A DNA stretch of 64,000 nt from an uncultured Pseudomonadota bacterium (GCA_963725905.1 CAVSAG010000003.1:449546-513545), one strand, 5' to 3'. Shown: positions 3,336 to 54,819, counted from the stretch's first letter. Numbers and translations: made by a program. Notes: generated by a model from the letters alone, not told the origin.

Positions 3336-3413
3336 CCAACCTTATTCGGTGGCCGCGCCGAGGCGATGCGCCGTTCGCTGATTCGACGGCGCTCCGATCG
3401 CGGCGCCGCGTCG

Positions 3414-4640
3414 TCAGCGTGAAGCCGCCGAGGTGTCGAAGAGCACCTGGTCGTGGAGGTAGAGGCGCTCGAACAGGTTGGCGGCCTCCTCGCCCATCCC
3501 GGCGCAAAGCGCGATCTCGCCCGCCGAGCGCTCGCCGTCGATCTGGTCGTGCAGCGCGAGCTCCCGGTCGTCGAGCGGCAGACAGAGATCGCGGTAGGTG
3601 TGGGCGCGATTGACGAGCACGGCCGCCGCGCCGGTCGGCAGGCCGTCGCGAATCGTGATCGCGTCCGGGACCGGCAGCGGCACGTAGTCGCGCCAGGCGT
3701 CACCGGCGAAGTCGACGGCCGTCGCGGCCTCCTCGTCGTCGTCCCGGACGATGATCGCGCTGTGGCGGACCATGGTCCCCCGGTAGAGCTCGGCCGCCGC
3801 GTACTGCTCCCGCGGCGGAAGCCCGAGGAGGCGGCCGCCGTGCGGCAGGAGCTGCATGACGCCGCAGGCGGGACTGTAGGGCGCCTGCCTCAGCCAGCGC
3901 ACGAACCGGCAGCCGCCCCGCGCGAGGAGGTCGTAGAGCTGCGGCACCGAGTAGGCGCGATCTTGCGGGTGCAGCAGCGCGTCCGCGATCCCGGCCGGAT
4001 CGCGGAAGTCGGGCGCCTCTCGCGCGAGCGCCGCCAGCGGGTGCGACTGCGGCAAGACGCCGAGCGCGGCGCCGAGATCGGCGATCTCCCCGGCGGTCGC
4101 CCGCACGCCGATCATCCGGCAGAGCTCCTGGAACATGTAGACGCCGGTCCGCCCGTAGGGCGCGTAGACCATGAGGTGCATCGCGCCTCCCGGCGCCAGC
4201 ACCGACCGCAGCGCGCCGAGCCCCCCGACCGGATCGGCGAGGTGGTGGAGCACGCCCGTGCAGATGATCTGGTCGAACGTCGTCGCGAGCTCGCCGACCC
4301 GCTCGAGCGCCAGCTGGTGAACCTGAAGGTTGGCGAGCTCGTACTTTCGTTTGAGCACCTCGGTGCTGCGGACGGCCGTGGCGCTGAAATCGATGGCGGT
4401 CACCCGGGCGACGGGCCAGCGCAACGCGTGCTTCACCGCCTGCGAGGTGCCGCACCCGGCTACGAGGATCGACGGGTTCTCGGCGAACGGGCGCGCGGGC
4501 CAACAGAGGTGATGGTCCGCGCGCCGTCTCCAGGGGTCTTGCCAGCGTTCGCGATAGCCCTCGAGATCGTCGACCGGCGGTGGGTAGGGGTGGGCGTCGT
4601 AGAAGCTTCGAACCCTGTCGGCCACCGCGGCGTGATCCAC
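3414..4640 (-). CDS. Class I SAM-dependent methyltransferase
   Basis: 408 aa. Motif I ILVAGCGTSQ, then VTAIDFS, DQIICTGVLHHL and PGGAMHLMVY. Starts 4 nt after the sulfatase stop on the same strand, so it is probably co-transcribed. Confidence 0.85.
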   Translation of the reverse strand: MDHAAVADRVRSFYDAHPYPPPVDDLEGYRERWQDPWRRRADHHLCWPARPFAENPSILVAGCGTSQAVKHALRWPVARVTAIDFSATAVRSTEVLKRKYELANLQVHQLALERVGELATTFDQIICTGVLHHLADPVGGLGALRSVLAPGGAMHLMVYAPYGRTGVYMFQELCRMIGVRATAGEIADLGAALGVLPQSHPLAALAREAPDFRDPAGIADALLHPQDRAYSVPQLYDLLARGGCRFVRWLRQAPYSPACGVMQLLPHGGRLLGLPPREQYAAAELYRGTMVRHSAIIVRDDDEEAATAVDFAGDAWRDYVPLPVPDAITIRDGLPTGAAAVLVNRAHTYRDLCLPLDDRELALHDQIDGERSAGEIALCAGMGEEAANLFERLYLHDQVLFDTSAASR

Positions 4641-17106: not shown

Positions 17107-18996
17107 TCAGCGGCTGCGCTCGATCGCCGGTCCCAAGATCGCGGCCAGGTCATCCCGTTCCAGCGTCTCGTGCTCCAAGAGCGCGACCACCAGTCGATCC
17201 AGCTCTCCCCGACGCTGCGAGAGCAGCACCGATGCTTCCTCCAGGGCGCGGGCGAGGACCCGCCGGGCCTCCTCCTCGATCACGGTGATCGTCGACGAGC
17301 TGGTTCCGCTCTCGGTGCCGATGCGCTGGCCGAGGAACGGATGCTCCGCCTCGTGGTCGTAGTAGACCGGGCCGAGGCGCTCGCTCATTCCGTAGTGGGC
17401 CATCATGTGGGAGGCGAGGCGGGTCGCCTCCTTGAGGTCGTTTTCAGCGCCCGTCGAGATGCTCCCCAAAACGAGGCGCTCGGAGGCGTAGCCGCCCATG
17501 AGGACGCGCAAGCGGGACTCGAGCTCCGCCTGCGCCATCAGGTGGCGATCCTCGCCGGGGCTCTGCTGCGTGGCCCCCAGCGCCATCCCGCGCGGGATGA
17601 TGGTCACCCGATGCAGCGGCTCCGCGTCGGACGAGAAGCGGGCGACGACGGCGTGTCCCGATTCGTGAACCGCGACGCGGCGCTTTTCCTTGGCGTCCAG
17701 CTTCGCCTCGCGCAGATCGCCGAGCACGATCTTGTCGAAGGCCTCGGCGAAGTCGTCAGCGGCGATGTTCTCGCGCGCCTTGCGCGTCGCCGACAGGGCC
17801 GCCTCGTTGACCAGGTTGGCGAGGTCCGCGCCGGAGAACCCCGGCGTGTTCTGGGCGACGACGTCCAGGTTCACGTCGGGGGCCAACGGCTTCCCCTTGG
17901 TGTGCACGCCCAGGATCGCCTTGCGGGCCGCCAGCTCGGGGCGGTCGACGAGGATGCGCCGGTCGAACCGACCTGGTCTCAGCAGCGCCGGGTCGAGCAC
18001 GTCGGGACGGTTGGTCGCGGCGATGACGACGACCAGATTGGTCCGGTCGAACCCATCCATCTCGGAGAGCAGCTGGTTCAACGTCTGCTCGCGCTCGTCG
18101 TTCCCGCCGCCGAGACCCGCGCCGCGCGAGCGACCCACGGCGTCGATCTCATCGATGAACACGATGGTGGGGGCGCTCTTCTTGGCCTCCTTGAAGAGGT
18201 CGCGCACGCGCGCAGCCCCGAGGCCGACGAACATCTCGATGAACTCCGACCCGCTGATGGAGAAGAACGGGACGCCCGATTCGCCGGCCACCGCGCGGGC
18301 CAGCAGCGTCTTGCCGGTGCCGGGCGGCCCCGCCAAGAGAACGCCGCGGGGAACCTTTCCGCCGAGGCGCTGGAACCGTTCCGGCTCCTTGAGAAACTGG
18401 ACGATCTCCTGCAGGTCCGACTTGGCCGCCTTCAGCCCGGCGATGTCGTTGAACGTCACGTTCACCGAGGTCGCCTTGTCGAACTTGCGGCTCTGGTTCT
18501 TGATGAGCCCCCCGAGGGGTCCGCCCGCGGCGAGCATTCCTTTCGCGCGCTTGGAGATCCAGAACCAGGCCCCGATGATCAGCACCCACGGCAGGAGGGT
18601 GAAGAGGATCTGGACGGCGAACGGCTGCCTCTGGCTCCTGACGCTGATGCGCACCCCTTTTTGCCGGAGCAGCGGGAGAAACTGTGGGTCGTTGGGCGCG
18701 ACATTGGTCTGGAGGTCCTTGATCTGCCGGCCATCGAGCGGCTCCGGCTTTTTCAAGGTGGCAGCGACCACCTCACCGTCGAGCACGACCGACTCCACCT
18801 TGTCCTGCTCGATCCACTGGTAAAGCTGCGAGTAGGCGACCGGCGGTTGTGCACTCCCTTCGGAGTAGCTCTTCCAGAGCCACATCCCCAGCAACATCAG
18901 CGGTAGAAACAGCAGCGTCCGGCGCGAGGCTCCTGGTTCGGGGGGCGCTCCCTTCAGTCGTCGGCTGTCGTTGTCCTTGGGCTCTGCGCCGGCCAT
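17107..18996 (-). CDS. ftsH: ATP-dependent zinc metalloprotease FtsH
   Basis: 629 aa. Two N-terminal TM segments. Walker A GPPGTGKT, Walker [33 protein letters not shown], zinc site HESGHAVV. Confidence 0.95.
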
Positions 18997-35131: not shown

Positions 35132-35243
35132 AGGGGGTGGGGGCCGGACCCGGCCGAGTCCCTTAGGGTCGGCGCGACCTTGGTCAGGAACGGGCCTTCC
35201 GCGGCCAAGCCAGGTCGGATCGACTCTGACCTATAGTTATCCG

Positions 35244-36953
35244 GTGAACAGGCCATGGCTCGCCCGGTCGGCGACGTGGTGTTGGTGTGTCTCGACACTG
35301 GCCGTCGCGCTCGTCGTTCAGCCGGCGTTTGCCGAAACGCCCGAACCTCATCCCACCGATGCCTGGGTTGACGACTGCCTCGACCGGATCGAATGGAGCG
35401 ATCCGGCCAGCTTTGCAGGTGAGTGTGTTCGACTGGCGCAGGAGGAGAAGCGATTCGGCGATGTCCTCGTCGCGTTTCTTCCACGCCGGCAGGAGGTGCG
35501 CGTCGCGGCGACGAAGAGCCTCGGCAAGAGATACGAGCAGTGCGTCCTGAACGCCCTCGGTAGCAAAGCCTGCCTTCTTCACCCACCTGCGAGAGCCGAC
35601 GCCTTCGAGTGGACTCGCCTCTACGACCTCCAGATCGGCAAGGCGGTGCCCAATCTCCCCGAGGCTCATCGGCTGAGCGAGGCCTGGGCGGCCGACAGGA
35701 ATGCCTCGTTCTGGACGCGCCAAGGGGCCCGAGCGGCTCTACGAAAGTTGTTGCCGGAGGACATGACGGTCGAGGCGAATGGGTGTCTGAGACAGCCCGC
35801 GACCGCCGCCTTGGGTAGCGCGCTGACGTCCTGGCTTTCAGGAGCGGGGAGAGCGGTACCGCCGATTTGGCGCCAGCCACTGGACGCCATTGTCGGGGAC
35901 GGCATTCGACACGACGAATGGGTTCGGATAGGGCCGAATCTCCTGGTGAACCTCGTCACCCGCAGTTGGTCCGGGTCCGAGCCGCCGGAAGATCTTCGAG
36001 AGATCCTGGAGCCCAGGAGCTCCCTCCAGGGGACCACCCTCTGTCTGCGGCCGATCGATGCTGCTGCCGAGGCTGGGATTCACGCTCGCATGAACGCCGT
36101 GGGAAGAGGGTGGCAAGGGAGCTTTGACGATGTACTGATGAACCCGACGGTGGCTCTCCCCGCCGATCGACGCTACCGTGACCTCGCACTGCCCGACCGG
36201 GCCATCTGCGGTGTCGACGAGGCAGGTGCCTTGTTCTGCGCTGGCTCTCGCGCCGTTGCCCCGGCGTTGACAGGGCGGTTCGTGGAGATCGCGGCAGCGG
36301 GACGGCGTGTCTGCGCAAGATCGGGGGACGGGGCGTTCTCCTGTCAGGCAGAAGGCCGAGCGATCGAGGTCGCTCCACCCGGGGTCTACAAGACCATGTC
36401 CACATCCGCGGATCGGACGTGCGGCGTGAAGTCCGATGGAGCCCTTTCGTGTTGGATGTTCACCGGCGGCTCAGAGCCGACCCCCCCCGGCCATTTCGTC
36501 AGCCTCGCGCCCAATGGTGGTCGCTGTGCGCTCCGAGACGATGGCCACGCCATCTGCTGGAGCACGAACGCCCAGCTCCGGGTCAGTGCCTGGGACGTGG
36601 CCGGCGACGTGGTCTCGGTGGATGGCGCCCCGGTCGGCGGGTGCATCGTCCGGAAGGATGGCAGCGCATCCTGTTGGTCCAGAGGCAGAGTCCTCAAGCC
36701 CGTAGCGGCAGACGCGCCTCTTCGACAGATCTCCATGGGAAGCGATGCCTCATGGTGCGGAGTCACGACACACAGTGACGTCCTTTGTTCGGAGGGCGGG
36801 GGTTCCGCGACGCTTCATCGGGGCGCCTTCCGTCGCGTCGTCAAGGGGCCGGGAAATGCCTGCGCGCTGGCCGAGGCCGGCGCCGTCAGTTGCTGGGGCT
36901 CGTTCTGGCCCTGGGCCGCGATGGGAAGCTCATCTCAACTGGGGCTGCACTAG
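35244..36953 (+). CDS. Exported protein with C-terminal RCC1-like repeats (hypothetical)
   Basis: 569 aa. GTG start; signal VNRPWLARSATWCWCVSTLAVALVVQPAFA. The C-terminal ~270 aa contains a recurring C(G/A)v..DG...CW pattern (ICGVDEAGALFCAG, TCGVKSDGALSCW, RCALRDDGHAICW, GCIVRKDGSASCW, ACALAEAGAVSCWG). Confidence 0.7.
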   Translation: MNRPWLARSATWCWCVSTLAVALVVQPAFAETPEPHPTDAWVDDCLDRIEWSDPASFAGECVRLAQEEKRFGDVLVAFLPRRQEVRVAATKSLGKRYEQCVLNALGSKACLLHPPARADAFEWTRLYDLQIGKAVPNLPEAHRLSEAWAADRNASFWTRQGARAALRKLLPEDMTVEANGCLRQPATAALGSALTSWLSGAGRAVPPIWRQPLDAIVGDGIRHDEWVRIGPNLLVNLVTRSWSGSEPPEDLREILEPRSSLQGTTLCLRPIDAAAEAGIHARMNAVGRGWQGSFDDVLMNPTVALPADRRYRDLALPDRAICGVDEAGALFCAGSRAVAPALTGRFVEIAAAGRRVCARSGDGAFSCQAEGRAIEVAPPGVYKTMSTSADRTCGVKSDGALSCWMFTGGSEPTPPGHFVSLAPNGGRCALRDDGHAICWSTNAQLRVSAWDVAGDVVSVDGAPVGGCIVRKDGSASCWSRGRVLKPVAADAPLRQISMGSDASWCGVTTHSDVLCSEGGGSATLHRGAFRRVVKGPGNACALAEAGAVSCWGSFWPWAAMGSSSQLGLH

Positions 36954-40816: not shown

Positions 40817-41113
40817 TCAGCGCCGGGTCCAGTATCCCGAACGTCGCTTCAGATGCGCGACCGCAACGATCTCGATCTCGTCATCCGAAATCAGTCGATA
40901 GACGAGGGCGTAAGGAAACCGTCCCATCAACGTCCGTCGAGATCCCCGGGCCGCGGCCCAGCGCTCGGGTGCCTCCACGATCTCGTCCGCCTTCTTGCGA
41001 ACTGCGTGTACGAATCGGAGGCCGAGGCCGGGCGAGCGTTCGTCGTACCAAGCTGCAGCATCCTGCAGCTCGGCCTCGGCCATCGGGTTGAACCGCAGCC
41101 GTCTACTTGCCAC
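40817..41113 (-). CDS. Type II toxin, RelE/ParE family
   Basis: 98 aa. LRFNPMAEAELQDAAAWYDERSPGLGLRFVHAVRKKADEIVEAPERW...FPYALVYRLISDDEIEIVAVAHLKRR. Confidence 0.8.
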   Translation of the reverse strand: MASRRLRFNPMAEAELQDAAAWYDERSPGLGLRFVHAVRKKADEIVEAPERWAAARGSRRTLMGRFPYALVYRLISDDEIEIVAVAHLKRRSGYWTRR

Positions 41114-41330
41114 CGAATCGCTGCTCGAGACGCGCGAAAACGTCTTCGGCCGGGACCGTCTTCACGCGGCCGGTGTCCACGTCCTCCATCCGCCGCTTGA
41201 TCTCGCCCTCCCAATACTCGCCCAGATCCGACAGATCGAGACTGGCTGACAGCTCGTCGACGAGCTCTTCGCGCTCCTCGGGCCGAAGCTTGAGCGCGGC
41301 CTCGAGAACAGCCTTCGTGGCGGCGGACAT
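41103..41330 (-). CDS. Antitoxin of the 'putative addiction module component' type
   Basis: 75 aa. LKLRPEEREELVDELSASL...YWEGEIKRRMEDVDTGRVKTVPAEDVFARLEQR. 11-nt overlap with the toxin gene. Confidence 0.75.
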   Translation of the reverse strand: MSAATKAVLEAALKLRPEEREELVDELSASLDLSDLGEYWEGEIKRRMEDVDTGRVKTVPAEDVFARLEQRFGGK

Positions 41331-41911: not shown

Positions 41912-42590
41912 GTGCCTGTATCGACCACGATCAGAGCGGCAAATGCGGACGAGCTGGGGGTGATCGCGCGGCGGATGGACCGCGGGCGCGAAGGTGCCTT
42001 CGCCAGGGGGGGAGCGTGGCGCCGGGAAGCGGTTCGCGTGGGCGTCATTGGCGCCGTGGCGACGGTGGCTTCTGCGGTCCTGGTCCTCCGGACGCAGACA
42101 GGCGCCTTCGTCATCGGCGGCGCGCTCGGACTGACGTTCGTGGCCTTTGGTCTGCTGGGCTCGCGGCGTGCTAGCCGGTCGATCGAGGTTCGGCTGGCGG
42201 AATGGGGGCAGGCGCGCCATCACGGAATACCGGATCACGGCTGATCGGATCGTCACCGCCGCGGGCGAGGACGGAGACGTGTGGTGGCTGTTCCGGATCG
42301 ACCCTGGTGCTTGGCTGGCCTTCGAGCAAGGACAGTGGGATGGCGTCGACGGGTCGGCGCACCTGTGGTGCCGTGAGGCACGAATCGGCGTGGATGCTCA
42401 TCGCACGGTTGTTTCGATCGAGAGCACGGGCGACCCCATCGTGGTCGAACGACGCGACCTGCGACCACCGGACTTCGCGCCGACACCCGAGACACTGTTC
42501 TGGTCGCCGCCCGACGAGGCCGGCCCGTTACCCGTGCAGATCGCCGGTGATCCGACCGTCCCGATCGCGACTACATCATCGCCGACATGA
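41912..42590 (+). pseudogene. Two-TM membrane protein with a probable 1-nt insertion in a G5 run
   Basis: The listed ORF 41912..42244 has two TM helices (VGVIGAVATVASAVLVL, FVIGGALGLTFVAFGLL). The listed ORF 42147..42590 is only protein-like from ...AITEYRITADRIVTAAGEDGDVWWLFRIDP onward. The frames meet at the G5 run 42204-42208; G4 would give ...IEVRLAEWGRRAITEYRIT... The last 30 nt overlap J-box copy 3. Confidence 0.5.
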
Positions 42591-42730
42591 ACGGCTCCGC
42601 CGTGTTCCTGCTCGCCGCGCTGAAGATGCGGCTCGGCCTGGCGGCGCGGCGGTGTGGGGTCGGCGCGGAGGCGGCGGGACGGGGCGGGGGAGGCGGGGCG
42701 GGTGTTGGGGTGGTTCGAGGGGCTGGGGCG
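42561..42730. repeat. J-box copy 3 (42561-42601) plus G-rich cassette leader copy L (42651-42730)
   Basis: ccgatcgcgactacatcatcgccgacatgaacggctccgcc, followed 50 nt later by ggtgtggggtcggcgcggaggcggcgggacggggcgggggaggcggggcgggtgttggggtggttcgaggggctggggcg. The latter aligns with 46521-46597 at about 70-75% identity by eye, with the blocks in the same order. Confidence 0.7.
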
Positions 42731-42852: not shown

Positions 42853-44050
42853 ATGGCCGGCAAAGGATGAAACGTCCTAGAAGTTGGGAGGCTAAAAGCC
42901 GTCGCACCTGGGCAGGCGCTCGGCTACAGCCTCCAGTTCACCCGACTCACGGAGATGCTTCTTGCCGCGGCGCCAGGAACGTCGTGCACCTTGGAGGTTC
43001 TCGATGCGGAGATTGGCACCCATTGGCAGGTTGTCCTTGGGCAATCCAAGAGTGCGTTGACGGACAATCCAGTCGCCGACAGGGCACTTCCGCTCTGGAA
43101 GACGATCTCGACGGCTTGAAGGTTGCGAAGGAAGGCCTTGTCGAGCCTGAGCGCAAGACAACAATGTTCGAGCTCTATGTCTCGCGCCCGGTCAGTGGGA
43201 CGCTGATCGACGCATTCAACGCTGCCCGAACTCATGAGGACGCTGTGTTGGCGTTAGAGAAGGCGCGCCACGAACTCTGGGGCGACGGCCCCGATCTCTC
43301 TTCGCCCTTCCCTGTCGACCGCGATCGCCCCATACGTAAACGAGGTACTCGAAACCGAGGATTGTCTCCTCGCGCCGATCGTGATGGGCGACCTTACTGC
43401 GGCTCAGGGAGCCCTCAAGCCGATATCGAGGCGGCGATCCGCCAGGGGCCCGTGTCGGATGCGAAGGTCTTCACGATTGCGGACAAAATGTGCGGCTGGG
43501 TAAAACGACAGGTCGACAAACAGCTTGAGCGCGGGCTTCCGGCATTAGTTCAACGGGACGATTTTCATCGCGAGTATGTGGCGTTTGTTCGAAGTGTTGA
43601 CCGAGATATCATTCTTAGGAGCTTCGCAAAAAAGCCGTCTCAGTCCGATCTCCTGAGAGCACTTACCGGACCTATTTGTCCAGCAGCTCGACTGGATAGA
43701 CTTGGGGTTCGACGAGAAGTTGGAAGCTGTCAGTGACTATCTCAGATCTTCGATCGGGTCACCTGGAGCAAATCCGGTGATGTGCATGAAGACTCGTTCA
43801 TTGGCCTCAACGAGCAGCTGTGCCGCGTCTGGCGGAATAGCGCTCGTGCAGCCAGCCTAGAAGGCGCGGCGAGTTCAGACACCGAGCGTGAAAGGCGTGC
43901 ACTCGCTGTATGACCTACGAAACAAACGTGCAAGGCATGGAGGCCCCGGCGCACTTTGTTCCAGGATGTTTTCATCGGCTCGCCGACGAAGCGACCATTG
44001 GCTGGCATCCAGCGTATAAGGCCCGCTTGAAAGCTCGCTCCGCGTCATGA
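42853..44050 (+). pseudogene. ABC-3C-type effector gene (DUF4297/Cap4-like nuclease N-terminus plus ABC-3C C-terminal domain), multiply disrupted
   Basis: Conceptual translation pieced from three frames. MAGKG*NVLEVGRLKAVAPGQALGYSLQFTRLTEMLLAAAPGTSCTLEVLDAEIGTHWQVVLGQSKSALTDNPVADRALPLWK / LDGLKVAKEGLVEPERKTTMFELYVSRPVSGTLIDAFNAARTHEDAVLALEKARHELWG / LSTAIAPYVNEVLETEDCLLAPIVMGDLTAAQGALKPI / VFTIADKMCGWVKRQVDKQLERGLPALVQRDDFHREYVAFVRSVDRDIILRSFAKKPSQSDLL / HLPDLFVQQLDWIDLGFDEKLEAVSDYLRS / IFDRVTWSKSGDVHEDSFIGLNEQLCRVWRNSARAA / NVQGMEAPAHFVPGCFHRLADEATIGWHPAYKARL. Lesions: TGA at 42868, and frameshifts near 43100, 43290, 43425, 43658, 43745 and 43900. Confidence 0.55.
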
Positions 44051-44548
44051 CGGCGCTGGCGCGAGAGATACGGAATATCCAAAACCCCGCTCTCGGTGCC
44101 GGTCTAGTTTGGCGGTTCGTCTGCTGGCTACACGTCGGATCACCCGACCCGTGATCCGGCTCCGCTTCCCGCCTTGTTTCTTGTACTGCCCATTGTCTTG
44201 CACGAAGAGACTGACTCGTTCGTCCGGAGCACTCTACTGTCTTCCGGCCTTCGGTCATTCGCGGCGAAGTTCGGCACCTCCGCAAACTCAAAGCAAGATC
44301 TGCTGCTGGCGATTCACGCACGGATGCTTGCTCTGCGTCCGTTGACCCTCGCCTCAGTGCGCATCGCGCTCGCGACGCGACTCCTTCACCTTGAGACGGC
44401 CGCCGTGATTCCACTCTCGACGACCAAGGCCCAGGCCGGCATCCTCCCTGACACAAAACGGCTGATGAAGAGTGCGGAAAAACTTGGGGCGTGGTGCGGT
44501 CGCCTGACCTTGCACGAGATTGCGACAACCTTGAAAGTGAGATTGTGA
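44047..44548 (+). pseudogene. ABC-3C middle-component gene with one frameshift
   Basis: The ATG overlaps the upstream stop (ATGA). MTALAREIRNIQNPALGAGLVWRFVC, then a shift near 44122-44150, then GYTSDHPTRDPAPLPALFLVLPIVLHEETDSFVRSTLLSSGLRSFAAKFG...DLLLAIHARMLALRPLTLASVRIALATRLLHL... (listed ORF 44174..44548). The pattern matches what I recall for three-component ABC system middle components. Confidence 0.55.
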
Positions 44549-44551
44549 AAC

Positions 44552-46599
44552 GTGTTGTTCCAAATCAGAGAACTTGTCCTCTGGCCGCGCGACACAGCCT
44601 TCGCTCCGCGACGCGTGCCATTTGCGCCGGGGAAGGTCACGGTGATCAGCGGTGCTTCACGCACAGGAAAGTCTGCCGTCATACCAATAATCGACTATTG
44701 CTTGGCCTCCAGTGCCTGCCTGATCCCTGTCAAGACGATCCGTGAGGCCTCTGAGTGGTTTGGGATCGTGGTCAGCACCGCCAATGGCGATAAGTTGCTC
44801 GCGCGTCGGGAGCCCGGGAGTCAGCGGTCTACAGATGACAGGTTTCTCCTCGAGGCTCCCACAATTTCAGAGGTGCCTAGAGTCATCAGAAAGAACACGA
44901 GTGCGCCCGAGGTGCGCAGACTTCTCGATGAACTGGCAGGTCTCGAACCTGGACTTCGGTAGCGGTGAGACGCAGCAAGGCTTCGACGCGAGGCCGAGTT
45001 TCCCAGACCTAAGTGCCTTCACATTCCAGCCAGAATGTTGTCGCCAACCGAGAGATCCTGTTTTCAAAACGGATCGCTACGAACATCGTGAAAGCTTCGC
45101 AAGATATTCCCCTACGTTCTCGGCGCTATCACCCCGACTTTGCTGGCCGAACAACACGAGCTTAGGCGGCTGCAGACGGAATTGAAGCGAAAAGAACGAG
45201 AACTGCGCGATGCGCAGCAGATATCCGCGCAGTGGATTGCTGAGCTGAGAGCGCGGGTCAGCGAGGCGCGAGAGCTCGGCTTGCTGCCGATGGCGGCATC
45301 AGGTGATCTCGCTGAAGCGATGATCGTGCTCCTGAGGAAATTGTAACAGCGGACGGACGCGACTTTAGCCGTCAGTGCATCGACGATCTCGGACGCTGTT
45401 CGCGAACTGAATGCGCTCGACAATGAGGAGTCGAGTGTATCCCACGACCTAACAAGGCTTCGCTGGCGCCTTACGGAAATGAACCGCGTGCGCGAGAGCG
45501 TCACTAGCTATCGCGACGCTCTGCGGATACAGCGTGATCGACTTAGCTTGGCGGACTGGCTTGGAACCCACAGATCGGGCGATGAAAAGTGTCCGCTGTG
45601 TGGTGGAGGAACGGAGCCCAGCGAGAAAATGCTGCATGAACTCCAGGCATCCCTAGTGGAGCTTGCTCGTGAGGCGGGCGATACGTTCGAGGTTCCCGAA
45701 GTTTGACCGGGAATTCGAGAGGGTTCAGACGGACGTAAATGACGTCGCCGACAAGCTGAAGGCTGTGCAGATTCGCAAGCGAGCGCTGTCGCAGCGGTCG
45801 AAGGAGTAGATGATATGCAATACCAGGCGAAGAAGGTCGAGCGCTTCATAGGTAATCTCGAGAACGCGCTGACGTTGTACCGACGCCTCGGCGAGGACGG
45901 AGGGATCGCGACGGAGGTCGAGATGTTGCGCCTGCAGGTCGCGAAACTGACCGAAGAACTCCGTGCGCAAAACCTCGACGAACGGAAACGCCGCGCTTTG
46001 CGTATCGTCAACGGAAACGCTGGTCGCCTAATGCCGCTGCTGGATACCGAACGACCAACCGATCCTGTATCGCTGACATCAACGATCTGACGATCAGGGT
46101 AACGGGCACGGCGCGTGAAGACTACCTCTCCGAGATCGGCAGCGGATCAAATTGGCTCTCGTATCACCTCGCCATGAGTCTCGGCCTTCAGCAGTTTCTG
46201 ATCACCTTAGACCACAACGCAGTCCCGAGCTTTCTCGTGTTCGATCAGCCGAGTCAGGTCTATTTTCCTAAGAGAGCGGCGATTCGCGACTCGGAGGTGC
46301 CGGACGATCCGGGGCTCAGAGACGAAGACACCGAGGCCGTTCGGAAGGCATTCGAGGTAATGGGTCTGGTTGTAGGTAGTGCCAAGGGTCGACTCCAGAT
46401 CATTGTTCTCGACCATGCGCCTCGTGAAGTGTGGGGATCGGTTCCCAACGTGGTTGAGTTCGAGGAGTGGCGCGGCGGGAAGAAGCTCGTCCCTCCGGAG
46501 TGGATTCTAAGTAGCCGTCAGGCGTGGGCGGTAGCGGAGGCGGCCGGACGGGCTGGGGAGGCGGTGAGGTGTTGCGGCCGCTTGAGGGGTGAGTGCTAG
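44552..46599 (+). pseudogene. DUF3732-type ABC/SMC-like ATPase of an ABC-3C system, multiply disrupted
   Basis: N-terminus [65 protein letters not shown] (Walker A). Then FTFQP/QNVVANREILFSK/TDRYEHRE/KLRKIFPYVLGAITPTLLAEQHELRRLQTELKRKERELRDAQ. Coiled coil with KCPLCGG (~45589-45606). C-terminus DINDLTIRVTGTAREDYLSEIGSGSNWLSYHLAMSLGLQQFL...VPSFLVFDQPSQVYFP...LQIIVLDHAP. Lesions: frameshifts near 44930, 45030, 45068, 45093, 45705, 45808 and 46075, plus an in-frame TAA at 45344-45346. The native stop was probably near 46510; the ORF tail runs into leader copy M. Confidence 0.75.
46521..46597. repeat. G-rich cassette leader, copy M
   Basis: ggcgtgggcggtagcggaggcggccggacgggctggggaggcggtgaggtgttgcggccgcttgaggggtgagtgc. 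This is a high-GC patch inside the low-GC island, collinear with 42651-42730. Shared blocks: GCGGAGGCGGC.GGACGGG, GGGGAGGCGG, GGTGTTG.GG, GAGGGG.TG.G.GC. Confidence 0.7.
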
Positions 46600-46842
46600 A
46601 CAGGACCGTCAATGACACTTCGTAGGTATGACGGTAGACACTCGAGGGCGGCCATCTCCATGGGCTCAACCTCACGCCGGGCGGTGGGTGACCTGTGTTG
46701 TCTTGTGACCGGCGACGGTATACAGTTGTTCAGGTATGGTCCTCCGGCTTCTCGATGGCCTCCAGAACCGAAGAACGAAGCCCATCCAAAAATGCGCTTC
46801 GGTGAGCGGCAGGTAGAGTCATGCTCCGCTTATCTCGTCACC

Positions 46843-47727
46843 ATGAACATCTTCGACTCGCCGGCCCAAACGCTGGTGAATACGGTGAATACCGTCGGGA
46901 TCATACTGGGCAAGGGAATCGCCGCCGAATATAAGAAACGATACCCCGAGATGTTCCACCGGTACGCCGAGTTCTGCGCCAACGGAATGCTAACCACCGG
47001 GATGTTGTACCTCTATCGAAGCCCGAACAAGTGGGTGCTGAACTTCCCAACCAAGCGTCATTGGCGGAATCCTTCCAAAGTAGAATACATTGAGGAGGGA
47101 CTTAAGAAGTTCGTGGCCACCTGGGCTGAGTACGGCATCACGAGCATCTCGTTTCCACAGTTGGGTACAGGCAACGGCGGGCTGGACTGGGAAAAGGCCG
47201 TTCAGCCCCTGATGGAGCGACACCTAAAGGATCTGCCCCTATCGATATTCATCCACGTTGCGAAGACCCGCTCCGATTTGTCCCTGAGCAGAAGAACGCG
47301 GTCAGCCGGAAGCACTTGCTCAAACCGAGAGTGGACGTCAGTTTCAATGAGTTTTTTTCTGATTCCTCTCGGAACACGCGAGTGGCGTGGAGCCGGTGGC
47401 GAGCAATGAGACCGGACGAGAGGAGCCAGAACCTCTTCCGCGGCTCCGATGCTCCGATCGTCTGACCATAGCCGGGGAGGATTTGCGCTCTCTGTGGCTC
47501 TATTAACCTTGCGCGGGGCGTTGCGGATCGACGAATTCCCCGCCAGCCTCAAGAAGCATTCTGAGGTCGTAACTTCGTTACTTCTTCAGCTCGGCTACAT
47601 CCGTCCGGCTCAGTTCACGGGCGATAGCGCGCGCAACATGAGAGGAATCCGCTTCGCTCCTGCTGCCGATGAGTCTCCTGAGTCAACTCAGCCGATGACG
47701 CCCGAGCTTGAAGCCCTGGGCCGGTAA
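46843..47727 (+). pseudogene. DarG-like macrodomain protein with a C-terminal extension, disrupted by frameshifts
   Basis: From the ATG at 46843: MNIFDSPAQTLVNTVNTVGIILGKGIAAEYKKRYPEMFHRYAEFCANGMLTTGMLYLYRSPNKWVLNFPTKRHWRNPSKVEYIEEGLKKFVATWAEYGITSISFPQLGTGNGGLDWEKAVQPLMERHLKDLPLSIFIHV. These are the macrodomain hallmarks VNTVN..G..GKGIA, FPTKRHWR and GNGGLDW. The reading continues in other frames: EDPLRFVPEQKNAVSRKHLLKPRVDVSFNEFFSDS... and ...LTLRGALRIDEFPASLKKHSEVVTSLLLQLGYIRPAQF. Frameshifts near 47255, 47463 and 47505. Confidence 0.8.
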
Positions 47728-47773
47728 GCTTCGGCAGCATGTCTTTGGCTGGCAGAAAACGCTGCCAAAGGAC

Positions 47774-48609
47774 ATGGCCCAGTTCGTCTATCGCTTCGAC
47801 GAACTTAAGAATGCCATCAATATCTTAAACCAGGGGTACTGGCCCAGTTGAGCCGAGTGCGAGAGGCGGGGTGTTCCGTTCGTAGATTGCGCGAGTTCAA
47901 CCGTCATCGCGAACACCCTCGGCTCCCATAAGGACTTCGTCCGCATTCTATCCTCGAACCCCGACGCAGTACCACAACGAAGGGATCCGGCCCGTATCGT
48001 CCTATTCGAACCAGGGGGCTCACTGCGCTGTACCCGTGTTCATGATGTTCGATTTCGTGAACTTGCTCGCCGACGACCAGACGCAGTTTTCGATAGGAAA
48101 CATGGCGAGCGCTGGCGTTGAGTTCGGCGCCAGTGAGGCACTCTTCGCAGAGTATTCCATTCGACCTCGTATATCACCGAGGATCGACCTGGGGCCATCA
48201 GAATGCCGGTACGATTACGTTTCATCGCCACGCCGAAGTGCTGGTGCCCGTGAGCTTGTCCACAGAGGGAATCAAGCGGATCGTTTGCCGTTCGCATCCC
48301 GAACGCCGAACGCTCCTGTACGGGTTGAGCCCGGGAATCCGTGCGCGCTTTGAAAACGTAGTTAGCGTCGAGGCAAGTGAGTTTTTCGAGCGCGCTTGGG
48401 CGTTTGTTGAAAAGGTCGAGCCGGGAAACGGTTCTTTGAAATTTACCTTTCATGCTGCCGATTCTCTCCCATCACCCCTGCGTGTGACCTTCAGGTACGA
48501 GGACGGGACCCGTACGTGGGGCTGGCAAGAACACTGGCAACTTCGCAGGCCGTTGACTATGGACCTCTCGAAGGCCGGTCCTATGGGAGTGGCGACGCTC
48601 TGGATTTGA
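47774..48609 (+). pseudogene. DarT-like ADP-ribosyltransferase with a C-terminal extension, disrupted
   Basis: Pieced translation: MAQFVYRFDELKNAINILNQGYWPS*AECERRGVPFVDCASSTVIANTLGSHKDFVR / FYPRTPTQYHNEGIRPVSSYSNQGAHCAVPVFMMFDFVNLLADDQTQFSIGNMASAGVEFGASEALFAE / IPFDLVYHRGSTWGHQNAGTITFHRHAEVLVPVSLSTEGIKRIVCRSHPERRTLLYGL..., followed by ~100 aa more. The motif order (N-terminal ..NIL..G, F.PRTP..Y, FS.GN.AS, RHAEVLVP) parallels DarT/DUF4433 as I remember it. Lesions: in-frame TGA at 47849-47851 and frameshifts near 47945 and 48155. Confidence 0.5.
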
Positions 48610-48667
48610 AGGAGCCAAGGCGTTCCAAGACAAGGTTATTCTCACTGAAGCGCCACTCTGATCGCAG

Positions 48668-48700
48668 GCCGCCCCACCCTCGACACCCCGCCCCCTCCTC
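48668..48700. repeat. Possible inverted partial copy of the G-rich leader at the right island edge
   Basis: The reverse complement gaggagggggcggggtgtcgagggtggggcggc resembles ggggaggcggggcgggtgt...tcgaggggctggggcgcggc of copy L. It is short and low-complexity, so this is tentative. Confidence 0.3.
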
Positions 48701-49913: not shown

Positions 49914-49948
49914 GCGACGGCCTGCGCGCGTAGGGAATTCGAACAGGG

Positions 49949-49965
49949 CGTCTCAAAACGAGACG
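49949..49965. terminator. Weak hairpin between the convergent pgk and 49953(-) genes
   Basis: cgtctc-aaaac-gagacg: a 6-bp stem with no U-tract, overlapping the stop codon of the minus-strand gene. Confidence 0.2.
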
Positions 49966-50630
49966 GTCGCACCGCCGAACGCGAAGCGCTGGGCCGGGTC
50001 GTAGCCCAGCTGCCATTGCAGCGGCTGCTTGCTCAGCCGATTGTTCTTGTTCACCAGGTCCGTCAGCTCCTGGTGGGTGGGCCAGCTGGCGTAGGCGACC
50101 AAGCCTCCGGCAATCATCGCGCCGACACCCAGAAAGCCGAACGCCGCCATCTTCTCGACGTTCCCCTGGTTGCAAGCGCCCCAGGCCGCGGAGTCCGCCG
50201 CGAAATTGGGGTCGGTGATCGAGGGTTGGGCGCAGTTGTCCGCGCTCGCCACGCCATAGATCACGGAAATTAGACCGACGGCGATTCCGCCCGCCAAGAC
50301 GACCTTCGCCCTGTCTTCCCGGGACTCGAGGCGCGCCGCATCCGGCGCCAGCTGCCCGTAGAGACCGGGATCGCTCGACCTGATGCTCTCCAGGTACGCC
50401 TGGAACCCGGTGACGCTGGCGTCGAAGCGCTGGTTCCCGGCCTGGAGGTGCTCGGGAATCACGACCGCGCTCTGATTCGAGGCGGCCTGCTGCTGGAGCA
50501 TCTGTTGATTCATATTCTGCTGGAGCAGTTGCTGTTGCAGGATCTGATCCTCCTGCGCTCGCCCGGCACGCGGCGCGAGGACCGCGGCAACCAGCAGGCT
50601 CACTCCCAACGACACTCGATATTTCGTCAT
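49953..50630 (-). CDS. Exported Gln-rich protein with C-terminal membrane segments (hypothetical)
   Basis: ATG at 50630 inside the listed 49953..50927 ORF. MTKYRVSLGVSLLVAAVLAPRAGRAQ signal, a QQQLLQQNMNQQMLQQQ stretch, two hydrophobic helices, and the ending ...AFGGATVSF. Confidence 0.65.
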   Translation of the reverse strand: MTKYRVSLGVSLLVAAVLAPRAGRAQEDQILQQQLLQQNMNQQMLQQQAASNQSAVVIPEHLQAGNQRFDASVTGFQAYLESIRSSDPGLYGQLAPDAARLESREDRAKVVLAGGIAVGLISVIYGVASADNCAQPSITDPNFAADSAAWGACNQGNVEKMAAFGFLGVGAMIAGGLVAYASWPTHQELTDLVNKNNRLSKQPLQWQLGYDPAQRFAFGGATVSF

Positions 50631-50740
50631 GACTCCTCCCGATCGACGCTCCGGGCAGAAACCACAGCAATCAGAGGGCCAACCACCCGCTGGCGTTTTT
50701 GGTGAGCACCCGCAGAAGGGAGGTCTAAGCTCGAACGACA

Positions 50741-51385
50741 ATGTATGGGCGGGTTGGTCGTTCGCTAGCTCTGACCGCGTTGCTCGTTGCTTGCTCGAGC
50801 GCGCCGTTGACGCCGACGGGTGGTGGGGGCTTCGGTGCGTTGGGTGGAAGAGGCGCGGGCGGGAGAGGCGCGGCCGGAGCCGGCGGTCGGATGGCCGGAG
50901 GCGGAGGCGCGGCGGGCCCGGGTGCACCCGTCGATGCTTCGGCCCCCGATCCCTGGACGTACAACGGGCAGCCCGTGACCAAGATCGACGTCAAAGGGTG
51001 TCGCCCTTACTACGGGTGCGACGTCTGCACCCTGACGCTGGCTGGCTCTGCGGACGCGGCCGTGCCCAACAACTATGGTTTGCCTTCGCAGCTGCTCTGC
51101 TCCCCGCCGCCGGCCGAGCCCGGCACGGTCGATTCGTCGTCGCTCGTGGACCAAGGCGGCCTTTCGCTGCCCGCGCTTTGTGGATTCTCCGCTCCGGATG
51201 GGGGCTCCTCCCCGACGATCACCGAGATCGTCCTTCAGCCGGACGTCGGCCCGTCGCCCCGCAGCGGATTCCCGAACGCCTACTGTCAGTTCCTGCCCGG
51301 CCCGACGATCGCCGAACCGGATGGATGCCTCTTCCTGAACCTCCAGGATGATTTCTGCGTCTCCGATTGCTCGCAATGTCCGTAG
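50741..51385 (+). CDS. Cys-rich lipoprotein (paralog of 56217..56993)
   Basis: 214 aa. LALTALLVACSS lipobox and a Gly linker. Motifs shared with the paralog: APVDAS.PDPW.Y.G.PVT.IDVK.C, AYCQFLP, CVSDCS.CP. Confidence 0.7.
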   Translation: MYGRVGRSLALTALLVACSSAPLTPTGGGGFGALGGRGAGGRGAAGAGGRMAGGGGAAGPGAPVDASAPDPWTYNGQPVTKIDVKGCRPYYGCDVCTLTLAGSADAAVPNNYGLPSQLLCSPPPAEPGTVDSSSLVDQGGLSLPALCGFSAPDGGSSPTITEIVLQPDVGPSPRSGFPNAYCQFLPGPTIAEPDGCLFLNLQDDFCVSDCSQCP

Positions 51386-51482
51386 GTGGGCACGCCGTGG
51401 CGAGGACGTTCCTCGTCCTCGAGTTGCATGTCCCGGACCTGGGGCCGGTCGCTTTCCCGCAGGCCCGAAGCGCGCCGGGTCG

Positions 51483-52136
51483 TCAGCGCTTCTGGTAGGT
51501 CTCGGCCCGATCGGAGTTCGGGCTGCTCGTGCCCGAGTTCTTGATGAAGATCGTGAACGTCGTGGGGGTCGCCGTGAAGGTAGCCGTCGAGGTGTCGAGC
51601 GACAAGGGCCCACCGTCGACGCCAAGGTCGATGCAGGTCACGGTCCTGCTGATGGTCGCCCCCGACACCGTGCGGGTGGTGGAGACGGTCACCGGGATTG
51701 GCAAGCTGGTCACCTCCTGGACGCACGCGCCCGCGATCTCCAGCGTTGCGTTGACCGGTGTCGACGAGCAAGCCGTCGTGCCGTAGTAGGTCTGCGAGGT
51801 GAGCGTGTACGTCCCGTCGACGATTGTTCCCCCTCTCCCGGTCGGAATCGCTCCGGCCACGCAGGTCGGCGTGACTGCCGCGCCGACGCTCGCGACCGTG
51901 TTGCAGGCCTGACCGGCGGGGACGTTGGCGCTGCAGCTCCCGGCGCCGGCGTCCGACGCTGGGCCGTTGCCGGCGTCCGATGCGGCGTCGCCAGCATCCG
52001 CGACGGTCTTGCTGGCGTCCGATGTTGGGCCGTTGCCGGCGTCCGATGCGGCCTGGGGTGACCCGCAAGCGGCCCCAGCACAGAGGTACGCGATGGCCGC
52101 AACCCAAAGACAGCTCGCCCCGTATCGATAAGTCAT
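51483..52136 (-). CDS. Lipoprotein (paralog of 54820..55719)
   Basis: ATG at 52136 inside the listed 51483..52286 ORF. MTYRYGASCLWVAAIAYLCAGAACGS. DAG/DAS repeats. GGTIVDGTYTLTSQTYYG and the C-terminal ...FTATPTTFTIFIKNSG are shared with the paralog (GGTIVDGTYYLSESISYTG). Confidence 0.7.
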   Translation of the reverse strand: MTYRYGASCLWVAAIAYLCAGAACGSPQAASDAGNGPTSDASKTVADAGDAASDAGNGPASDAGAGSCSANVPAGQACNTVASVGAAVTPTCVAGAIPTGRGGTIVDGTYTLTSQTYYGTTACSSTPVNATLEIAGACVQEVTSLPIPVTVSTTRTVSGATISRTVTCIDLGVDGGPLSLDTSTATFTATPTTFTIFIKNSGTSSPNSDRAETYQKR

Positions 52137-52194
52137 GTGTGAGAGCGTACGCCGAAGCTCCACTGCCGCATAAATCGGGCGGCGGACGTCGGAG

Positions 52195-53345: not shown

Positions 53346-53454
53346 GCACGTCGGCAACCGCCCGTTCGGCTTCCTCTTCTTCTTCGTTTCTTCTTCGTCC
53401 TCTTGGCCGGCGCGCTTTCTGTGAATCCGTAAATGCGTTAATAGTGAGCTCCTA

Positions 53455-54756
53455 ATGAGCTCTTGTTGCGCGCGCACGAGGTTCGCTGTTTCTCGATTTT
53501 CCTCGGCTGCACGACTCACCCGCGTGGCGGCGGTGCTCCTGGCCGTGTCGGGCTGCGATGGCTCTTCCGGCTCTGGCACCTCGGCCGGAAGCGGAGGTGG
53601 CGGCGGGGTGACCGGGAGCGGCGGGAGCGGCGCGGTGGGCGGGATGAGCGCCGGCGGCGCCGGTGGACTTTCCGGCGGCGCCGGCGGTGCCGCGAACGGA
53701 GGCTCGGCCGGCGGCGCTCCGCCCGGAATCGGCGGGGACTGCTGCGCTCCGCTCGGAACCGGCGGGACCGGCGGCGCGACGCTCGGGGGCGGCGGTGCGG
53801 CCGGCCATCCCGCGGGCGGAGGCGCTGCCGGCAGCGGTGGCGCCGGGGGACATCCCGCGGGGGGAGGCGCTGCCGGCAGCGGTGGCGCCGGGGGACATCC
53901 CGCGGGGGGAGGCAGCGGGGGCGCGGGCGGTCAGGGCGCGCACGGCGGCGTCGGCGGAGGCGCGGCCGGTAGCGGCGGCGCGGGCGGCAAGGCGGGCAAC
54001 ACAGCTCAGATCTGCACGCCGGGCGAGCACGCTTGCCTCGGAAGCGCTCTTTACGTCTGCAACACCGCCGGCACGGCTCGAACGCAGCAGATTCTCTGCG
54101 CCGCCGGCACGTATTGCGACGTCCCGACGCTCGGCTGCCTGCCCCAGATCTGCACGCCGCAGGATCCGGCGTGCGACGGCCAGGTCGCCACGACCTGCAA
54201 CATCACCGGTTCCGGCTACGAGGGGACGCGCACCGATTGCTCGGCGACGCCCGGCCAGCACTGCGAGAGCGGGATGTGCACCTCGCTCACCACCGCCACG
54301 GTCGGCTCGCCGCAGGACACCGGCGCGGTCGGCTCCAGCGAGATGACGTTCAACTTCTACGCCGTGACGGTCAACGTGGCCCTCGCCGAGATCGACGAGC
54401 AGCTGGAAACGAACGCCACCACGAACGTCGCCTGGGCGGTGTACGACGCGGGGACCAATCCCCAGGACGAGTACTACCTGGTCTCGTGGGCGGAGATGTA
54501 CACCTTCTCGAGCTACTACACCTCCTCCGGGCCGATCAGCGTCCCCTTGCTGGCCGGTCACAACTACGCCATCGGCATCTCCGTGCTCGGGTCGTCGCTG
54601 TTTTATTCGGAGACGGGAGCTCTCCCGCAAACGACCAGCTTCGGCACGCTCATCAGCGCGGGGAGCTATTCCGGTGCGCCGCCCCCCTCGACCGGAATCC
54701 CCTGGCGCGCGCCCGCGGGCTTCTTCTATCCGCAAATCCTGAAGACCCAGCACTAA
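53455..54756 (+). CDS. Lipoprotein with a long Gly-rich linker and a Cys-rich/beta domain (hypothetical)
   Basis: 433 aa. VAAVLLAVSGC lipobox. A ~150-aa Gly linker containing the 45-nt repeats. Cys-rich segment ICTPGEHACLGSALYVCN...CESGMC, then a globular C-terminus. Confidence 0.7.
   Translation: MSSCCARTRFAVSRFSSAARLTRVAAVLLAVSGCDGSSGSGTSAGSGGGGGVTGSGGSGAVGGMSAGGAGGLSGGAGGAANGGSAGGAPPGIGGDCCAPLGTGGTGGATLGGGGAAGHPAGGGAAGSGGAGGHPAGGGAAGSGGAGGHPAGGGSGGAGGQGAHGGVGGGAAGSGGAGGKAGNTAQICTPGEHACLGSALYVCNTAGTARTQQILCAAGTYCDVPTLGCLPQICTPQDPACDGQVATTCNITGSGYEGTRTDCSATPGQHCESGMCTSLTTATVGSPQDTGAVGSSEMTFNFYAVTVNVALAEIDEQLETNATTNVAWAVYDAGTNPQDEYYLVSWAEMYTFSSYYTSSGPISVPLLAGHNYAIGISVLGSSLFYSETGALPQTTSFGTLISAGSYSGAPPPSTGIPWRAPAGFFYPQILKTQH
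53806..53916. repeat. In-frame tandem repeat, about 2.4 x 45 nt
   Basis: catcccgcggg(c/g)ggaggcgctgccggcagcggtggcgccggggga repeated; it encodes (HPAGGGAAGSGGAGG)n. Confidence 0.85.
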
Positions 54757-54819
54757 ATCCTGAAGACCCGGCGCTGAGCCAGGTGAGCCGATGCCGGCGC
54801 GACGTTCGCCGGCCGTTGC

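Follow-up and report, generated by a model that had tools for sequence, protein, structure and literature searches.

What is the three-gene module that lies at positions 42853-46599 of a 64,000-nucleotide stretch of DNA from an uncultured Pseudomonadota bacterium (GCA_963725905.1, CAVSAG010000003.1:449546-513545; the whole stretch is referred to as the window), and does its broken sequence record a real loss of function? A previous sequence-only reading had described it as a decayed module resembling the ABC-three-component (ABC-3C) systems, with a nuclease effector, a middle component and a DUF3732 ATPase. There is no long open reading frame (ORF) on the forward strand of this region, the coding signal instead switches among all three frames. 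The locus is very probably a pseudogenised operon of the type II (short) Lamassu kind, lmuA-lmuC-lmuB, in which the small insertions and deletions (indels) represent genuine decay that followed a loss of selection. ABC-3C is an older computational name, and the systems it covers are now counted within the Lamassu superfamily (PMC10586767). The locus is a degraded member of a known and structurally solved family, and it brings no new mechanism, family or architecture.

It is the matches to the Pfam families CTD7, MC3 and DUF3732, together with those to the PADLOC models for LmuB and LmuC, that identify the module as a Lamassu operon. All three of the families that define ABC-3C (CTD7, PF20283; MC3, PF20131; DUF3732, now LmuB_C, PF12532) are matched in the window and in the expected order, a test of the kind that the sequence-only reading had proposed. 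E-values for whole genes were obtained from frame-corrected products that were stitched together across the interruptions. In this form LmuA, LmuC and LmuB match chains C, D and A of PDB entry 9HQU with E-values of 3.7e-98, 2.1e-55 and 3.1e-225 respectively, a similarity that chance could not give, this entry and the related 9HQX and 9HR5 being labelled in Foldseek as the Salmonella enterica Lamassu LmuACB or the LmuA tetramer. The same products match the Vibrio cholerae structures 9NXX and 9NY5 more weakly (E = 3e-21 for LmuA, 3e-11 for LmuC and 9e-119 for LmuB).

The closest known system is the LmuACB of S. enterica serovar Tennessee (9HQU, 9HQX, 9HR5), which has the same gene order, the same domains and the same zinc hook as the window and can be aligned with it from end to end. 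The window still encodes equivalents of its LmuA residue K68 (in the motif QSK), of LmuB K40 (Walker A) and S536 (signature), of the DQ Walker B and of the CxxC hook, and the numbering of K68, K40 and S536 in the published work (bioRxiv 10.1101/2025.03.14.643221) coincides with the aligned QSK, GKS and IGSGS. Compared with the Salmonella system the window copy cannot be translated, is short of one Asp in the motif LEVLDD and is found in a Polyangia-type genome with a guanine plus cytosine (GC) content of ~70 %. The DdmABC system of V. cholerae, also known as Vc-Cap4 (9NXX, 9NY1, 9NY5, 9NYG, 9UXH-L), has the same three components and its anti-plasmid and anti-phage abortive infection has been tested (PMC12663957; PMC11707656). 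It is the more distant of the two and its LmuB has no zinc hook (PMC12663957), whereas the LmuB of the window has CPLCGG, in a copy that is dead. As judged from sequence the subtype, with an LmuA made of a Cap4-like nuclease and CTD7, an MC3-type LmuC and a zinc-hook LmuB, is the one shared with V. cholerae DdmABC and S. enterica LmuACB.

The junctions between the genes were as the sequence-only reading had them. At 44047-44050 the sequence ATGA joins the stop codon TGA of lmuA to the start codon ATG of lmuC, an overlap that is also found in the intact orthologous operon on contig L001, and a gap of 3 nucleotides (nt) at 44549-44551 separates the lmuC stop TGA (44546-44548) from the GTG start of lmuB at 44552. 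The gene order, the overlap and the gap are identically arranged on L001 and on a second contig, L002. These two contigs came out of the search for intact orthologues that the sequence-only reading had called for; with the stitched third gene as query there were hundreds of intact homologues of 656-660 amino acids, the closest of them 71 % identical, and on the two contigs the operon is complete, with products of 407 or 398 amino acids (CTD7), 166 amino acids (MC3) and 657 amino acids (LmuB_C). One of the intact operons has BREX and TIR genes as its neighbours, the other has CBASS. The nearest intact Lamassu operons belong to metagenome-assembled genomes (MAGs) of Nitrospiraceae, Gammaproteobacteria and Thiobacillaceae, their identity does not exceed 74 % and their GC content is 48-53 %. 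No relative closer than 70 % identity was found in a scan of species-representative genomes, and none closer than 74 % in a scan of metagenomes, so that neither a near donor nor a sister of the cassette is on record.

The product of lmuA combines an N-terminal Cap4-like PD-(D/E)xK nuclease with a C-terminal CTD7 oligomerisation domain. The motifs GYSLQF, EVLDAE and GQSKS are encoded in its N-terminal part and HFVPGCFHRLADEATIGWHP in its C-terminal part, and these, like the other motifs that had been listed for the three genes, were all recovered at their positions. Residues 7-385 of the frame-corrected LmuA align with Salmonella LmuA (9HQU_C). The assignment of the C-terminal domain has held: the 46-amino-acid fragment from 43910-44050 matches CTD7 with E = 4.3e-5 and 24.2 bits, under the Pfam gathering score of 27.6, but the intact LmuA orthologs are over it with E = 1e-13 to 1e-14, and the motif HFVPGC.H.LAD...GWHP, which is invariant in homologues, is kept in the window. 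An intact ortholog also matches the PADLOC model LmuA PDLC03848 (E = 5.9e-40).

The Cap4 (DUF4297)-like N-terminus suggested for the first gene stands at the level of fold, but not at the level of sequence. A Pfam scan of two intact LmuA orthologs with E-values up to 10 returned CTD7 alone and no DUF4297, and a profile of 30 LmuA sequences run against the sequences of the PDB found LmuA chains only, with no match to Cap4. When P0270, an intact ortholog, was modelled with AlphaFold (predicted local distance difference test score, pLDDT, of 81.5) and the model submitted to Foldseek, LmuA structures ranked first, with the Salmonella chains at 42-51 % identity, and they were followed by the HerA-associated DUF4297 protein 9C1M (E = 9e-5) and by Cap4 6WAM (E = 2.5e-3, probability 1.00), with further matches to Cap4 6VM6 and 7YIB and to Avs3 8DGC. 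The modelled structure therefore supports a Cap4/DUF4297-like N-terminus by fold only, with no link that can be seen between the sequences. The nuclease fold is common to LmuA, to Cap4 of CBASS and to HerA-associated DUF4297 proteins (6WAM, 6VM6, 7YIB, 9C1M, 8ZIR), it is the C-terminal partner that differs, being CTD7 in the window LmuA and a SAVED or HerA-binding domain in the others. Within this nuclease domain 30 homologues share E50, D53, D54, Q68 and K70 without exception, and the window retains the E, one D, the Q and the K. The second D has been lost through an in-frame deletion of 6 nt (two codons) between 43005 and 43006, which turns LDD into LD and removes the second Asp of LEVLDD, a residue that is invariant across 111 LmuA homologues.

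The second gene, lmuC, encodes NPALGAGLVWRF, LFLVLPIVLHEET and DLLLAIH. Its ORF at 44174-44548 matches Pfam MC3 (E = 6.1e-22) and PADLOC LmuC (E = 5e-8), in agreement with its earlier description as the middle component, and the alignment of the stitched product with 9HQU_D, which is labelled LmuC, spans residues 4-166. The third gene was likewise rightly placed with DUF3732, as the last fragment of lmuB matches this family (now LmuB_C) with E = 8.6e-42, and the stitched LmuB of 649-657 amino acids matches the PADLOC model LmuB PDLC03859 over its full length (E = 2.3e-117). LmuB has a Walker A motif GASRTGKS, a CPLCGG zinc hook on a coiled coil, which is aligned with CPMCGS of 9HQU_A, and the signature IGSGSNW, its Walker B is of the DQ variant (FLVFDQPSQVYFP) and FLVFDQPSQ is present.

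The remark that knowledge of ABC-3C systems is mainly computational no longer holds, as for the same subtype there are now both assays and cryo-EM structures. Type II Lamassu, of the composition Cap4-like N-terminal domain and CTD7, MC3 and LmuB, has been assayed for defence against phages and plasmids and solved by cryo-EM (bioRxiv 10.1101/2025.03.14.643221; PMC12663957), and abortive infection directed against phages or plasmids is known only for the homologues (bioRxiv 10.1101/2025.03.14.643221; PMC12663957; PMC11707656). Li et al. describe the subtype NTD-Cap4-CTD7 with MC3, note that it is related to DdmABC and report the mutants LmuA K68A, LmuB K40I and LmuB S536R (bioRxiv 10.1101/2025.03.14.643221). 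From what has been published on these homologues, the intact complex would have contained two LmuB protomers and one LmuC that grip a single LmuA by way of its CTD7, and the Cap4-like PD-(D/E)xK nuclease would be kept inactive by being held as a monomer. The sensing of DNA ends or replication intermediates of a phage or plasmid would lead to the release of LmuA, which could then form a tetramer through CTD7 in which two nuclease domains make up one active site. It is the tetramer that would cleave DNA and so abort the infection.

Lesions in the operon were mapped with a frameshift-aware dynamic programme, aligning protein to DNA against five intact orthologs, and the junctions were then inspected. 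This gave a total of 16-17, very near to the 16 or so that had been counted before, made up of 14-15 frameshifting indels, two premature stops and the probable loss of the lmuB stop. In lmuA the first lesion is either a TGA at codon 6 (42868-70, if the ATG at 42853 is the start) or a shift of 1 nt near 42885, and six frameshifts follow (~43105-17, 43284-302, 43387-96, 43656, 43747 and 43893-902). A single insertion of +1 nt at 44125 divides lmuC into a head of 26 codons and the 124-amino-acid ORF at 44174-44548. In lmuB there are seven frameshifts (44942, 45033, 45061, 45090, 45695, 45807 and 46076) in addition to a TAA at 45344-46. The homology of lmuB stops at 46509 and the ORF continues to 46599; all orthologs terminate in TGG-(A/G/C)T(T/C)-TCN-stop, the window has TGGATTCTAAGTAGC, and a deletion of 1 nt (T) at ~46505 has probably put the stop codon out of frame and prolonged the ORF. 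With all of its genes interrupted, none of the three Lamassu proteins can be made, and without the open reading frames of a functional system the locus is a Lamassu by descent, that is, a pseudogene. The features of the locus are collected in Table 1.

Table 1. Coordinates of the decayed genes and of the repeat copies in the window, with the evidence for each.
Feature	Position	Strand	Evidence or location
lmuA pseudogene	42853..44050	+	Alignments to LmuA of L001/L002 and to P0267-P0269; PDB 9HQU_C; Pfam CTD7; PADLOC
lmuC pseudogene (middle component, MC3)	44047..44548	+	Pfam MC3; PADLOC LmuC; PDB 9HQU_D
lmuB pseudogene (SMC/Rad50-like ABC ATPase)	44552..46599	+	PADLOC LmuB; Pfam DUF3732; PDB 9HQU_A
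darG-like pseudogene (macro-domain antitoxin)	46821..47727	+	Pfam Macro; PADLOC DarG; DNA alignment to L016/L017
darT pseudogene (single-stranded DNA ADP-ribosyltransferase toxin)	47774..48661	+	Pfam DarT PF14487; PADLOC DarT; alignment to L017
G-rich imperfect direct repeat of ~70 nt, left copy	42651..42722		Local alignment
G-rich imperfect direct repeat of ~70 nt, right copy	46521..46589		Between lmuB end and darG upstream region

As to the extent of the module, the decayed Lamassu operon stands, but it is only half of a decayed island of low GC content, with a dead darG-darT module directly after it. The ORF at 46612-47409 encodes a DarG-type macro domain (Pfam Macro, E = 5e-18; PADLOC DarG, E = 4.3e-54), the first ~149 codons of which are still open and which is annotated as a protein of 205 amino acids (P0147). 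Indels are confined in darG to the 3' half where they were placed, at 47280 (-1 nt), 47364 (+2 nt) and 47504 (-1 nt). In darT a CGA codon has become TGA at 47849-51 and there are indels at 47947 (-5 nt), 48153 (+1 nt) and 48605 (+1 nt), giving six frameshifts and one stop for the two genes. A six-frame Pfam scan of 46550-48700 found the macro domain only, DarT was seen only after the frames had been stitched; the product, stitched from three frames, then matches PF14487 over its gathering score (E = 1.5e-17) and PADLOC DarT (1e-7).

Homologues of this DarG with 89-90 % identity and 293-299 amino acids come from Polyangia MAGs, and intact copies of darG and darT on the Polyangia-type contigs L016 and L017 are 83-86 % identical to the window at the DNA level. 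On L017 and L018 an intact macro-domain gene is followed by a DarT of 292-296 amino acids, in the same order as in the window. The more familiar gene order of DarTG is darT then darG, whereas the window has darG then darT. Just upstream of the intact darG-darT, positions 1-40 of L017 begin with what seems to be the 3'-terminal part of a tRNA gene (GGTTCAAATCC...). The sequence of L017 suggests a DarTG cassette that is mobile and that lies at a tRNA-associated integration site.

The question remains whether the lesions are real, since frameshifts can also be made by errors in a consensus sequence. An indel error spread over the whole assembly was considered and rejected, as the decay is local and the host genes, set beside those of close relatives, have hardly any indels that break the frame. 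These relatives are three independent assemblies (L010, L012/L014 and L013), all 97-99 % identical to the window, which differs from them by 104 mismatches and 7 gaps in 9.3 kb, every gap a multiple of three, and by 27 mismatches with no gap at all in a further 3.0 kb. In a comparison at the protein level of ~42 host genes (~32 kb) only three had lesions in the window, two with a frameshift and one with a stop. All three are on the reverse strand, an ECF sigma-70 (extracytoplasmic function) gene shifted at ~27107, a sulfatase gene shifted at ~5100 and a methyltransferase gene (3345-4613) with an in-frame stop, and each may be either a genuine pseudogene or an occasional error of assembly. The background rate of lesions is therefore ~0.1 per kb, and the coding sequence of the island (5.5 kb), which has 23-24 lesions, is ~45-fold denser in them.

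The strongest alternative is that the operon and darG-darT are intact in the organism, with the frameshifts being local consensus errors in a strain-variable island of lower GC with poor coverage or poor polishing. In its favour the source is a contig of 650 kb, likely from a long-read assembly, and a few of the indels affect short runs of a single base (T5 to T4 at 45061; A4 to A3 at 45090). Against it, the rest of the window is essentially without frame-breaking indels, and local errors do not readily account for three substitutions that create stop codons (TGA at 42868, TAA at 45344 and CGA to TGA at 47849), for indels of -5, +2, -2 and -4 nt, for single-base events outside homopolymers, or for the in-frame deletion of 6 nt that takes out an invariant Asp. 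It is the near absence of lesions from the host genes, along with the stop-creating substitutions and the multi-base indels, which favours real pseudogenisation over a local consensus artefact, and the latter is considered improbable.

Several observations nevertheless weigh against genuine decay, or at least temper it, and some of these are just what consensus errors would leave behind. The ratio of frameshift to nonsense lesions is ~20:3, such a dominance of small indels over stop-creating substitutions being what errors laid over an intact operon would give. General mutation spectra, rather than this genome, give a rough expectation of ~2.5-4:1, and a ratio of ~20:3, though high, can still be reconciled with it. 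Private replacements at conserved columns are only mildly raised in LmuB (9, compared with 4.3 +/- 2.4 in intact homologues that are equally isolated) and show no excess in LmuA (3, compared with 1.6 +/- 1.4). The ratio of nonsynonymous to synonymous substitution rates (dN/dS) of darG and darT measured against the intact L017 is 0.08-0.13, equal to that between two intact copies, so by both measures the genes remain near to the values of intact ones. There is no near-identical sister copy, whether intact or decayed, in the genome and metagenome collections (best 70 % and 74 %), and the lesions are thus not polarised against a close relative. The mechanism and function of the ancestor of the window copy, too, are inferred by analogy with homologues that are about 50-60 % identical. 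The private replacements and the dN/dS values constrain the age of the decay and do not by themselves prove it. Taken with the kinds of lesion found, the sequence would fit a decay that is recent relative to the split from the nearest intact homologues and dominated by small indels, with perhaps ~1-3 % of neutral divergence since inactivation.

If the system as a whole has decayed, it might still be that some of its ORFs have been kept for a function of their own, these being the macro ORF of darG (46.8-47.4 kb), as an orphan anti-DarT factor or ADP-ribose hydrolase, the 124-amino-acid LmuC and the 136-amino-acid head of LmuB. The macro domain is free of lesions, its dN/dS against the intact homologue is 0.079 and its ORF was called as a 205-amino-acid protein in the source annotation. 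Yet at the density of lesions seen in the rest of DarTG ~2.25 hits are expected in these 450 nt, so that finding none has P ~0.1 and is not significant, no comparable argument can be made for the Lamassu fragments, and LmuC and the LmuB head are without known activity outside the complex. Retention of this kind seems quite improbable. That programmed recoding or phase variation bypasses the frameshifts, with full-length proteins still being made, has nothing in its favour beyond the catalytic motifs all being kept in their local frames. It is so improbable as to be rejected, because the shifts are too many and too varied: there are at least 14 of them, differing in sign and size, and in-frame stops as well, so that recoding would have to occur independently at many places in the three genes. 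The shift points themselves show neither slippery sites nor repeat tracts, and the intact orthologs do without recoding.

With genuine decay as the preferred reading, the place of the locus in its genome can be considered. The GC content is 0.58 in the Lamassu operon and 0.56 in DarTG, remaining low up to ~48.66 kb, compared with 0.70 in the flanks. Lamassu and DarTG together form a decayed island of ~6 kb and ~57 % GC directly upstream of pgk, in a Polyangia (myxobacteria) genome of ~70 % GC. Homology to L017 stops at 48668 and synteny with the pgk region of the relative begins at 48679. From 48679 onwards L010, a relative of 97-98 % identity, shares pgk, but upstream of it L010 has a protein kinase gene and a gene for 418 amino acids, both absent from the window, and it follows that the island is specific to this strain at the pgk site. 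The borders of the island yielded no tRNA, Rfam family, integrase or transposase.

The Lamassu cassette is bracketed by the two copies of the G-rich repeat (Table 1), of which the right one accounts for the false extension of the lmuB ORF at its C-terminal end. The copies are ~80 % identical and their alignment score of 37 exceeds that of shuffled sequences (15.7 +/- 2.6, maximum 29), it is the sole such match in the 64-kb window. The repeat has no counterpart in the loci of the relatives, and it may be the footprint of an insertion or a chance match of low complexity. Just left of the repeat, at 42551-42648, are the start and ~20 codons of a host gene (MNGSAVFLLAALKMRLGLAA), the remainder of which is 7 kb further left at 35170-35568; the two parts are contiguous in L014 (2487-1999), in a relative that is 98-99 % identical. 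The segment 42551-42648 thus reads as an extra copy of the 20 promoter-proximal codons of this gene. The split parts share a 7-nt junction, CGGCGCG, and the detached 5' copy points to illegitimate recombination in a region prone to rearrangement.

Other parts of the window also vary between strains. When compared with L014, 30-42.6 kb is a mosaic with several inserts specific to the window, and at 17107-18996 (reverse strand) there is an intact ftsH of 629 amino acids where L012, 98 % identical, has an unrelated gene for 275 amino acids. The segments 49916-52188 and 53347-54771 are specific to the window and absent from L010, the latter encoding a Gly/Ala-rich and probably secreted protein of 433 amino acids (53455-54756) and truncating a neighbouring gene for 307 amino acids. 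An apparently intact type II toxin-antitoxin pair is found 1.5 kb upstream of the dead island (40817-41330, reverse strand), in which a 98-amino-acid toxin of the ParE family (ParE_toxin, 5e-9) overlaps a 75-amino-acid antitoxin (Unstab_antitox, PF09720).

For annotation the consequence is that the ORF fragments, and with them the 205-amino-acid 'macro domain protein', should be labelled as remnants of pseudogenes, and defence-system finders that need intact genes will miss the locus. The density of frameshifts is nearly equal in the two halves of the island, ~3.8 per kb in Lamassu and ~3.2 per kb in DarTG, with no measurable rise of dN/dS in either. A tentative idea, on balance unlikely, is that both systems turned neutral together in a single event, be it silencing, the loss of a shared trigger or the arrival of the island in an already dead state, and that the mutation spectrum of these Polyangia is unusually biased to indels. 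If this were true the island would be a small internal clock for the turnover of defence systems, and the open macro domain of DarG might persist as an orphan antidote. With this locus there is one more documented case in which mutation, rather than deletion, has led to the loss of a defence island. Two systems of the abortive-infection type, both toxic, have died side by side, in a strain whose close relative is without the island, which fits the rapid gain and loss that is expected of such systems.

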